Source: Escherichia coli (GTDB lineage: Bacteria > Pseudomonadota > Gammaproteobacteria > Enterobacterales > Enterobacteriaceae). From it: a DNA stretch of 64,000 nucleotides. Each line of letters begins with the position of its first letter. The stretch's first letter is position 1. The stretch lies in the NCBI RefSeq assembly GCF_003334815.1, contig NZ_QOWO01000004.1, one strand, 5' to 3'. The notes below the pieces were generated by a model. It was not told where the DNA came from. It did no database searches and worked only from the letters and a program-made list of their open reading frames with translations. Both the position numbers and the translations under genes were made by a program. This document shows, one piece after another, positions 2,846 through 36,540 of the stretch.

Positions 2846-3163
2846 ATGATCGTGCAAAAAGAGCTAGTTGCTATTTACGATTATGAGGTCCCTGTACCTG
2901 AAGATCCGTTTTCCTTCAGACTTGAGATCCATAAATGCTCTGAATTATTTACAGGTTCCGTCTATCGACTGGAGCGATTCCGGCTACATCCAACATTTCA
3001 TCAACGTGATCGAGAAGATGCTGACCCGCTAATAAATGATGCGTTGATTTATATAAGAGATGAGTGTATTGATGAGCGGAAATTACGAGGTGAATCACCT
3101 GAAACTGTAATAGCAATTTTTAATCGTGAACTACAGAATATATTCAACCAAGAAATAGAATAA
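2846..3163 (+). CDS. yehK: Small acidic protein of unknown function (105 aa)
   Basis: ORF track 2846..3163; ATG preceded by GGGGAAAG; position between yehI and yehL. Confidence 0.7.
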   Translation: MIVQKELVAIYDYEVPVPEDPFSFRLEIHKCSELFTGSVYRLERFRLHPTFHQRDREDADPLINDALIYIRDECIDERKLRGESPETVIAIFNRELQNIFNQEIE

Positions 3164-3229
3164 TATACTCTAGATAATTAAAGTCGCAGCACATGCAACT
3201 TGAAGTATGACGAGTATAGCTTTCTTAAA

Positions 3230-3249
3230 GGGGGAAACGGTATTCCCCC
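3230..3249 (-). terminator. Hairpin downstream of toxin gene 1 (GGGGGAA / TTCCCCC stem); weak U-tract
   Basis: Inverted repeat read directly; on the minus strand only TTT follows the stem. Confidence 0.4.
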
Positions 3250-3272
3250 TTAGATGCGTTTCAATTTGCCCG

Positions 3273-3362
3273 TTACTTCAACAAATCAATCAACCGTAAC
3301 AGAGCCACTAATAACTCCAGTACGGCAATGAGCACGGTTAACTTTTGTGTCAGCGTGTCCAT
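3273..3362 (-). CDS. zorO: Type I toxin, 29-aa hydrophobic peptide MDTLTQKLTVLIAVLELLVALLRLIDLLK (ZorO-like)
   Basis: Minus-strand ATG at 3362 with AAGGAG 5 nt upstream, TAA at 3275..3273; one predicted transmembrane helix with charged ends. Not in the supplied ORF track (too short). Gene name from memory of the zor-orz family. Confidence 0.75.
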   Translation of the reverse strand: MDTLTQKLTVLIAVLELLVALLRLIDLLK

Positions 3363-3543
3363 CCGCTCTCCTTATTAAGGAGCGCAACACCAGCACCTTA
3401 CCCTTACACTGCCTGTTGATACTGGTTTACGTATGTTGGTACGAAACGTTGCTCTCCGGATCAGGGCACCGCCTGCGGCACCACCCGTCCGGCAGCCAGG
3501 ACTTAAAATTGGTCCGATCCGGCACAACCTCCCAACGGGCAGG

Positions 3544-3594
3544 ATTATAAATCTCACTCACTGAATTGCAATGGAGTGTGGATATGGTTATAAT
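3544..3594. promoter_or_regulatory. Back-to-back sigma70 promoters of unit 1
   Basis: Toxin promoter on minus strand: -10 TATAAT (complement of 3544..3549), 16-nt spacer, -35 TTGCAA 3566..3571. sRNA promoter on plus strand: same palindromic TTGCAA as -35, 17-nt spacer, -10 TATAAT 3589..3594. Confidence 0.55.
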
Positions 3595-3600
3595 TTATTC

Positions 3601-3681
3601 GTTGGTACGAAATGTTGCACAATCAGCAAGTTAGCGTCACTGTAGTAAATAAAAGAACCTGCCTCACCAGCAGGTTTTTTT
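3601..3681 (+). ncRNA. orzO: Antitoxin small RNA 1 (OrzO-like), ~80 nt
   Basis: Predicted start ~7 nt after the -10; 5' segment 3601..3620 GTTGGTACGAAATGTTGCAC is complementary to the toxin leader at 3435..3452; ends at an intrinsic terminator. Extent is predicted, not measured. Confidence 0.6.
3656..3681 (+). terminator. Intrinsic terminator of sRNA 1 (AACCTGC-CTCACCA-GCAGGTT followed by a T-run)
   Basis: 7-bp stem, 7-nt loop and a T7 run read directly. Confidence 0.7.
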
Positions 3682-3837
3682 ATTTACTGCGATCTACTTT
3701 CCAGATATTTTTTGCCAATAGCCCAACTTAAATATTCACATCCCGGTCAAATGGTGCGTTGAATATAAAATCGATGAATTTATAAATAAAAATGAGTTAT
3801 ATGATGAATTAATAAAAACAGTAATCATTTTATTAAA

Positions 3838-3857
3838 GGGGGAAGCGGTTTTCCCCC
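3838..3857 (-). terminator. Hairpin downstream of toxin gene 2
   Basis: GGGGGAA...TTCCCCC inverted repeat, as in unit 1. Confidence 0.4.
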
Positions 3858-3880
3858 TTAGATGCGTTTCAATTTGCCCG

Positions 3881-3970
3881 TTACTTCAACAAATCAATCA
3901 ACCGTAACAGAGCCACTAATAGCTCCAGTACAGCAATGAGCACGGTTAACTTTTGTGTCAGCGAGTCCAT
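3881..3970 (-). CDS. zorP: Type I toxin paralog, 29 aa MDSLTQKLTVLIAVLELLVALLRLIDLLK (ZorP-like)
   Basis: Same architecture as 3273..3362; one substitution (T3S); AAGGAG Shine-Dalgarno conserved. Confidence 0.75.
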   Translation of the reverse strand: MDSLTQKLTVLIAVLELLVALLRLIDLLK

Positions 3971-4151
3971 CCGCTCTCCTTATTAAGGAGCGCAACACCA
4001 GCACCTTACCCTTACACTGCCTGTCGATACTGGTTTACGTATGTTGGACCACGATGTTGCACTCCGGATCAGGGCACCACCTGCAGCACCCCCCGTCCGG
4101 TAGCCAGGACTTGAAATAGGTTCGATCCGGCGCAACGTCCCAACAGTCAGG

Positions 4152-4202
4152 ATTATAAATCTCATTATCTTAATTGCAACGGGGTCCAGCCGTGGTTATA
4201 AT
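4152..4202. promoter_or_regulatory. Back-to-back sigma70 promoters of unit 2
   Basis: Toxin -10 (complement of 4152..4157), shared -35 TTGCAA 4174..4179, sRNA -10 TATAAT 4197..4202; spacers 16 and 17 nt. Confidence 0.55.
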
Positions 4203-4208
4203 TCGTTC

Positions 4209-4291
4209 GTTGGAACACGATGTTGCACAGGCTGTGGTGTTAGGCCTGAAAATAGTAAATAAAAGAACCTGCCTCACCAGCAGGTTTTTTT
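4209..4291 (+). ncRNA. orzP: Antitoxin small RNA 2 (OrzP-like)
   Basis: 5' segment 4209..4228 GTTGGAACACGATGTTGCAC is complementary to the leader of toxin 2 at 4043..4062; intrinsic terminator at the 3' end. Confidence 0.6.
4266..4291 (+). terminator. Intrinsic terminator of sRNA 2
   Basis: Same AACCTGC...GCAGGTT stem and T-run as unit 1. Confidence 0.7.
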
Positions 4292-4402
4292 ATTTACTGC
4301 GATCTGCTTTCCAGATATTTTTTGCTCAAACAACTAATGCGCCAAACATTTATTGCGCGTAAAATATCGTTTATTTCATTAATACATTTCAGGGATGAAT
4401 AT

Positions 4403-24716: not shown

Positions 24717-24889
24717 GATGAGCATTCAGATAGTGGTTCACGCGCACGGGTTGCGCACCGCCGGAGTAAGGATTTACTGAGGCTAGCGACGCCATCATAA
24801 CGAGCAAAAAGTGCGATCGTCAAAGGAGAATCGTGAGGAAATGCTGCATTGCTGACATTTACGCCAGCAATGCAACGTCAAAGAACTTT

Positions 24890-36354: not shown

Positions 36355-36540
36355 GACGCATCCGGCATTTGGTTCCTGTCGCCGGATGCGGCTTGAACGC
36401 CTTATCCGGCCTACAAAACCATACAAATCAGTATGTTGAGCTTATTGTAGGCCGGATAAAACGCGCCAGCGTTGCATCCGGCATTTGGCTCCTGTTGCCG
36501 GATGCGGCGTGAACGCCTTATCCGGCCTACAAAACCACAC
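36355..36540. repeat. BIME: cluster of REP elements in alternating orientation
   Basis: Three GCCGGATGCGGC...TTATCCGGCCTACAAA-type units between preA and mglC. Confidence 0.85.

Follow-up and report, generated by a model that had tools for sequence, protein, structure and literature searches.

Two tandem zor-orz units of Escherichia coli, each with an sRNA matched to the leader of its own toxin mRNA

Several paralogous toxin/sRNA pairs per genome are found in the ibs-Sib family of E. coli, where few variable nucleotides let each sRNA discriminate. The Sib RNAs are genuine antisense RNAs encoded in cis, with complete complementarity to their targets and two recognition domains, whereas the zor-orz systems form a short trans duplex with a single recognition region. 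The tisB-istR-1 and shoB-ohsC systems share with zor-orz an sRNA 5' end whose pairing site lies a long way upstream of the RBS, within a 5' UTR that is long and processed, as well as divergent, trans-acting sRNAs, a standby-site competition model and RNase III cleavage (PMC5397157, PMC3919570). Both are single-copy systems, so that there is no paralogue discrimination, and neither their toxins nor their sRNAs show any sequence relationship to those of zor-orz. Wild-type OhsC and IstR fail to repress zorO (PMC3919570).

Within zor-orz, repression of zorO by OrzO requires RNase III (PMC3919570), and structure probing located the binding and protection of the zorO leader by OrzO in the "exposed after processing" (EAP) region (PMC5397157). 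Overproduction of ZorO is toxic, and OrzP, present at equal levels, gave no rescue from zorO (Wen, Won and Fozo 2014, PMC3919570). The exchange of V1 (sRNA nucleotides +9..+11) in OrzO for ACG led to loss of repression, the exchange of V1 in OrzP for GAA led to its gain, and a compensatory V1 mutation in zorO restored repression by OrzO-V1. The first nucleotide of V1 was the most critical, and a single change at nucleotide 9 abolished repression (PMC3919570). An empirical pairing rule derived by Wen et al. asks for 15 or more continuous pairs, or for 17 or more if there is one internal mismatch. A BLASTn survey published in mSystems in 2024 defined a third type, zorQ/orzQ, described the base-pairing region as "quite variable", which "may prevent crosstalk", and found that 99.8% of 2,439 loci keep the potential for cognate pairing (PMC11264685). 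The locus is a textbook-style case of a short RNA duplex in which a handful of nucleotides prevents interference between paralogous regulatory pairs, and this point is already in print. The cognate-only matching described below is real but already known, having been published in 2014 (PMC3919570) and extended in 2024 (PMC11264685). Our additions are minor and consist of extra allele classes, rare converted leaders, a recurrent mismatch at duplex position 7, and a wider distribution.

The window is the whole 64-kb stretch of E. coli DNA that was analysed. Its positions 3150-4350 hold the zor-orz type I toxin-antitoxin locus known from E. coli, with zorO/orzO as unit 1 and zorP/orzP as unit 2. 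The two tandem units are 608 bp long, as given by the 608-bp offset of the unit alignment, and are flanked by yehK (ORF 2846..3163) and yehL (from about 4404); these flanks were matched in E. coli genomes. The 1.2-kb stretch showed up to 99.9% identity to E. coli chromosomes. Compared to E. coli O157:H7 strain F6321, nine differences were counted over the 1.2-kb locus, none of them in the pairing segments, and all four pairing segments are base-for-base those of an O157:H7 genome. The Rfam family RF02083 ("OrzO-P RNA antitoxin") matched at 3608-3681 with 88.8 bits and at 4216-4291 with 99.9 bits (gathering score 60). Divergent from the sRNA genes, minus-strand ORFs encode hydrophobic toxins of 29 amino acids with the sequences of ZorO and ZorP (T3S). 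As V1 is published at +9..+11 (PMC3919570), the trinucleotides GAA at 3609..3611 (OrzO) and ACG at 4217..4219 (OrzP) place the first nucleotides of the sRNAs at G3601 and G4209, respectively, and mark unit 1 as the O unit and unit 2 as the P unit. The first-pass annotation, made from the sequence alone, had placed the 5' ends at the same nucleotides.

All defining features of the zor-orz family that can be tested on sequence were found in the window. Specifically, the toxin ORFs, leader, promoters, sRNAs, target at +85..+102 and yehK/yehL setting are the same as in zorO-orzO/zorP-orzP of O157:H7 EDL933, and nothing relevant differs from the O157:H7 locus. A cis-antisense layout of the ibs-Sib type was not found, as orz is divergent from zor and does not overlap it, and the complementarity extends over 18-20 nt only. 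The features of the two units are as follows.

3273..3362, minus strand: zorO toxin ORF, 29 aa, MDTLTQKLTVLIAVLELLVALLRLIDLLK; from the ORF list, identical in the O157:H7 locus L001, name from PMC3919570 and PMC11264685.
3363..3536, minus strand: zorO 5' UTR, 174 nt, with the putative TSS at 3536; from the sequence, with UTR length and RBS position as published (PMC5397157).
3373..3368, minus strand: zorO SD AAGGAG, +164..+169; agrees exactly with the published RBS position (PMC5397157).
3435..3452, minus strand: OrzO target in the zorO leader, +85..+102; from pairing and motif search, with the EAP region and OrzO protection reported in PMC5397157.
3544..3549, minus strand: zorO -10 hexamer TATAAT; from the sequence, hexamer from PMC11264685 Table 3, placement putative.
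3566..3571, no strand assigned: palindromic TTGCAA, putative -35 for both unit 1 promoters; from the sequence, TTGCAA being the zor and orz -35 in PMC11264685.
3589..3594, plus strand: orzO -10 hexamer TATAAT; from the sequence.
3601..3681, plus strand: OrzO sRNA, with pairing nt 1-18 (3601..3618), V1 at nt 9-11 and terminator hairpin at 3651..3681; from RF02083, V1 and the predicted fold.
3881..3970, minus strand: zorP toxin ORF, 29 aa, MDSLTQKLTVLIAVLELLVALLRLIDLLK, T3S relative to ZorO; from the ORF list, T3S variant per PMC11264685.
3971..4144, minus strand: zorP 5' UTR, with a putative TSS placed at 4144 by homology with zorO; from the unit alignment (608-bp offset).
4043..4062, minus strand: predicted OrzP target in the zorP leader; from pairing and motif search.
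4152..4157, minus strand: zorP -10; from the sequence.
4174..4179, no strand assigned: palindromic TTGCAA, unit 2 -35; from the sequence.
4197..4202, plus strand: orzP -10; from the sequence.
4209..4291, plus strand: OrzP sRNA, with pairing nt 1-20 (4209..4228) and V1 ACG at nt 9-11 (4217..4219); from RF02083, V1 and the predicted fold.

The TTGCAA palindrome is separated from the zor -10 (minus strand) by a spacer of 16 nt and from the orz -10 (plus strand) by one of 17 nt. With this spacing, one -35 could serve both divergent promoters, which would imply competition for RNA polymerase. The terminator hairpin is identical between OrzO and OrzP, while the predicted folds differ in the middle stem-loop (3621-3642 vs 4229-4252). 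The latter is the most diverged part of the units (16 differences in 24 aligned columns). Elsewhere in the 64-kb window, Rfam matches to naRNA4 (RF02564, 88.3 bits) at 36450-36527 and to the Peptidase-S11 cis-regulatory RNA (RF03039, 72.8 bits) at 24721-24801 were observed, both on the minus strand.

In unit 1, the OrzO 5' end at 3601..3618 reads GTTGGTACGAAATGTTGC on the plus strand and the zorO leader site at 3435..3452 reads GTTGGTACGAAACGTTGC on the same strand. In unit 2, the corresponding segments are GTTGGAACACGATGTTGCAC (OrzP 5' end, 4209..4228) and GTTGGACCACGATGTTGCAC (zorP leader site, 4043..4062). Each sRNA 5' end and its leader site thus form a plus-strand direct repeat, 166 bp apart, and transcription of the toxin gene from the minus strand turns this repeat into an RNA duplex. 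Over the 18 nt of OrzO:zorO, 17 pairs are Watson-Crick and the remaining one is U·G (sRNA nt 13); over the 20 nt of OrzP:zorP, 19 pairs are Watson-Crick and sRNA nt 7 forms an A·G mismatch. This bears out the single G-U and the single mismatch noted for the two units in the first-pass annotation. The sRNAs of the two units differ at four positions (nt 6, 9, 10, and 11) and the leaders at 6 of 18 (7 of 20), so that the earlier estimate of about five differing positions was a fair one. Positions 6, 9, 10, and 11 are altered on both sides of the duplex, positions 7 and 13 in the leader only. Each non-cognate duplex contains four mismatches; in OrzO:zorP these are located at nt 6, 7, 10, and 11, and 16 of 20 positions remain paired, including a G·U at nt 9.

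The calculation of duplex energies for all four sRNA/leader combinations, which had been proposed as a check, showed clearly more stable cognate duplexes, and the claim of poorer cross-pairing stood. Over 20 nt, energies of -29.6 kcal/mol were obtained for OrzO:zorO and -30.8 kcal/mol for OrzP:zorP, compared to -21.2 kcal/mol for OrzO:zorP and -17.2 kcal/mol for OrzP:zorO. The bare non-cognate duplexes are hence 8-13 kcal/mol weaker than the cognate ones. For an accessibility correction, the opening energies of the full sRNA and of the full-length or processed (delta28) 5' UTR were added, and the difference remained at least 8 kcal/mol. The corrected cognate totals amounted to -15.9 and -16.5 kcal/mol with the full UTR and to -21.0 and -21.8 kcal/mol with delta28. 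For OrzO:zorP, -7.8 kcal/mol (full UTR) and -13.1 kcal/mol (delta28) were determined. The values for OrzP:zorO (+9.0 and +4.0 kcal/mol, respectively) are inflated by an odd extended duplex, which does not affect the ranking. OrzO:zorP is the less-insulated direction.

When the 64-kb window was searched with the sRNA 5' segments, allowing up to three mismatches, each segment matched itself and its own leader only and never the leader of the other unit. Shuffled controls gave 0.11 and 0.00 expected matches, and the cognate matches are not due to chance. Furthermore, every cognate O, P, Q, and N pair passes the published pairing rule and every non-cognate pair among O, P, and Q fails it.

The locus is very probably best explained as two tandem type I toxin-antitoxin units in which near-perfect pairing of an sRNA is confined to the leader of its own unit. 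In the mechanism proposed, each unit would consist of the mRNA of a 29-aa membrane toxin with a 174-nt leader, divergent from an sRNA of ~80 nt. [quoted passage not shown] This pairing would block the supposed ribosome standby site and trigger RNase III cleavage, by which toxin synthesis would be repressed. Specificity would be set by central nucleotides of the duplex, chiefly V1 (sRNA nt 9-11) together with nt 6; as these differ between the units on the sRNA and the leader side, each sRNA finds a near-perfect duplex in its own leader only. Since the pairing segments in the window are those used in the published experiments, the mechanism of the O unit is established on identical sequences. 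For the P unit, the pairing predicts that OrzP represses zorP and that OrzO fails to do so; no report of a test of either sRNA on zorP was found in the accessible zor-orz literature.

To follow the pairing across natural alleles, loci were gathered from complete E. coli genomes, species-representative genomes and metagenome contigs. The resulting sample of 35 loci, with about 40 units, is small and was ascertained by exact-match patterns. The scan of species-representative genomes with GTTGCNCTCCGGATCAGGGCACC yielded three species, which is a lower bound; leaders of the Q/N type (CAGAGCACT) are undetectable by that pattern. Seven natural sRNA/leader combinations were distinguished: O, P, Q, the NU14 type, in which the sRNA accompanies a Q-type leader, two O-like combinations, and "R" with a one-base bulge, whose target (L014) was aligned with N opposite the bulged sRNA nt 13. 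Across these classes, 7 of 20 duplex positions are changed on both sides. Standard pairs occupy 95.7% of the cells, compared to 86% in column shuffles, and none of 500 shuffles reached the observed values; when the partner was slid by 1-3 columns, at most 39% of the cells were paired. Every row of a 7 x 5 energy matrix had its most stable duplex with the natural partner. The notion of two insulated cognate pairs thus draws support from thermodynamics, from covariation among allele classes, and from published experiments with identical sequences.

Duplex position 7 (window 4215/4049 in unit 2, and the same position in the Q- and NU14-type units, L002 and L005) is mismatched in three of the seven classes: P has A·G there, Q has A·A, and the NU14 type has G·A. 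Covariation is seen at the positions around it.

The match between sRNA and leader might be read as a mere leftover of duplication, that is, repeated DNA with no pairing function, a reading suggested by the direct repeat at 166 bp. It is hardly conceivable, given the compensatory changes at seven duplex positions across the allele classes and the protection of the site by OrzO in structure probing (PMC5397157), and mutagenesis with compensatory rescue had already refuted it (PMC3919570). Another reading accepts the pairing but takes the insulation to be incomplete, with OrzO partly repressing zorP via the shared 3' half in a partly redundant network. The non-cognate duplexes do retain nine continuous pairs (nt 12-20, common to most alleles) and -17 to -24 kcal/mol, so that weak crosstalk at native levels is possible. 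For OrzO:zorP in particular, with 16 of 20 pairs, the estimates ranged from -21.2 to -24.4 kcal/mol, and the corrected value on the processed leader was the -13.1 kcal/mol given above. However, even overexpression of OrzP brought no rescue in the reciprocal pair, which contains about as many mismatches, and a change of V1 nt 9 alone abolished repression (PMC3919570); OrzO:zorP combines a G·U at nt 9 with four mismatches and fails the published pairing rule. We therefore consider partial repression of zorP by OrzO unlikely.

A further alternative concerns the evolutionary account only and leaves the mechanism unchanged. Insulation could be a by-product of old allelic lineages, each of which kept its own sRNA-target match by compensatory evolution or short-patch conversion, with the arrays assembled from modules and poor cross-pairing a mere consequence of the age of the lineages. 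The O and P pairing alleles are unchanged in E. whittamii (L010) and two other Escherichia species (L009, L011) as well as in single-copy E. coli genomes (L003, L006, L034), and the array orders O-P, Q-P, Q-O, and Q-O-P were all found. The same alleles in other species, in single-copy genomes, and in varied arrays suggest that O, P, Q, and other classes are old, modular specificity alleles. The first-pass annotation had also held that the duplicated copies diverged in a coordinated way: the changes on both sides at positions 6, 9, 10, and 11 agree with coordination, but the strain comparison it had called for argues against a recent divergence in place, which is probably not what happened. The pairing segments, 40 nt in all, show an excess of differences between the units (11/40 vs 49/457 elsewhere, Fisher p = 0.004), and units sampled in the same array never carry the same sRNA specificity allele; both points speak against a mere by-product. 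On the other hand, the pairing segments are equalled or exceeded in divergence by the middle stem-loop of the sRNA (67%) and by the inter-promoter spacer (25%), and with divergence extending beyond these segments, selection specifically for insulation is no more than a possibility. Taken together, a by-product origin seems to us a serious possibility, if a rather doubtful one.

Further pairing alleles, along with the toxin variants K7R/A13T and A20V, were found on metagenome contigs (L013/L017, L014, L019) with flanks 80-87% identical to the window. New alleles between such flanks indicate that zor-orz extends beyond E. coli and Shigella.

Converted leaders were found in two arrays. E. coli JNE23-001 (L035, NZ_AP045064.1 2349000-2353400) carries a three-unit array in the order Q-O-P, with leaders at 1914, 2523, and 3131 and sRNAs at 2080, 2689, and 3297 of L035. 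Its third unit is of the P type except for a tract of ~30 bp that gives the leader target the Q allele; this tract was present in 1 of 5,426 complete E. coli genomes. Similarly, the metagenome contig X243_Noctule__coassemble_120 (L026:430-660) shows a Q-type leader beside OrzP, with a Q tract of ~100 bp and OrzQ upstream on the contig. Both arrays retain OrzQ, which pairs with the Q-type target of the P unit at -32.7 kcal/mol. With a Q target in the P unit, OrzQ would match two toxin leaders (-32.7 kcal/mol each in JNE23-001) and OrzP would be left with no target. We considered the JNE23-001 hybrid as a toxin lacking a matching sRNA and rejected this, as the third unit type (Q) upstream supplies the match. 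The JNE23-001 hybrid looks like intra-array gene conversion. The exact L026 tract was found in none of the complete E. coli genomes (best match 97.8%), and this hybrid itself may be a co-assembly artefact; as the complete genome of JNE23-001 carries a like hybrid with a shorter tract, the conversion is probably real.

Specificity in the zor/orz pairing region may be a multi-allelic system, at least seven classes of which exist in Escherichia and relatives, and short intra-array conversions (~30 and ~100 bp) may move targets between units. We put this forward tentatively, at somewhat less than an even chance. If true, a conversion that leaves OrzP targetless could be the first step to an orphan orzP, which is common in E. 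coli including K-12. The rare converted leaders would represent natural rewiring and could be used to probe the need for sRNA control at native expression.

An orphan orzP with no zor lies between yehK and yehL in the E. coli strains 38 and RM9467-C1 (L007, L008). Strain VTB97448v (L033:1248) carries an extra orzP 5' end located 153 nt after that of its P unit. The two arrangements are in line with the "orz-only" and half-copy loci described earlier (PMC11264685).
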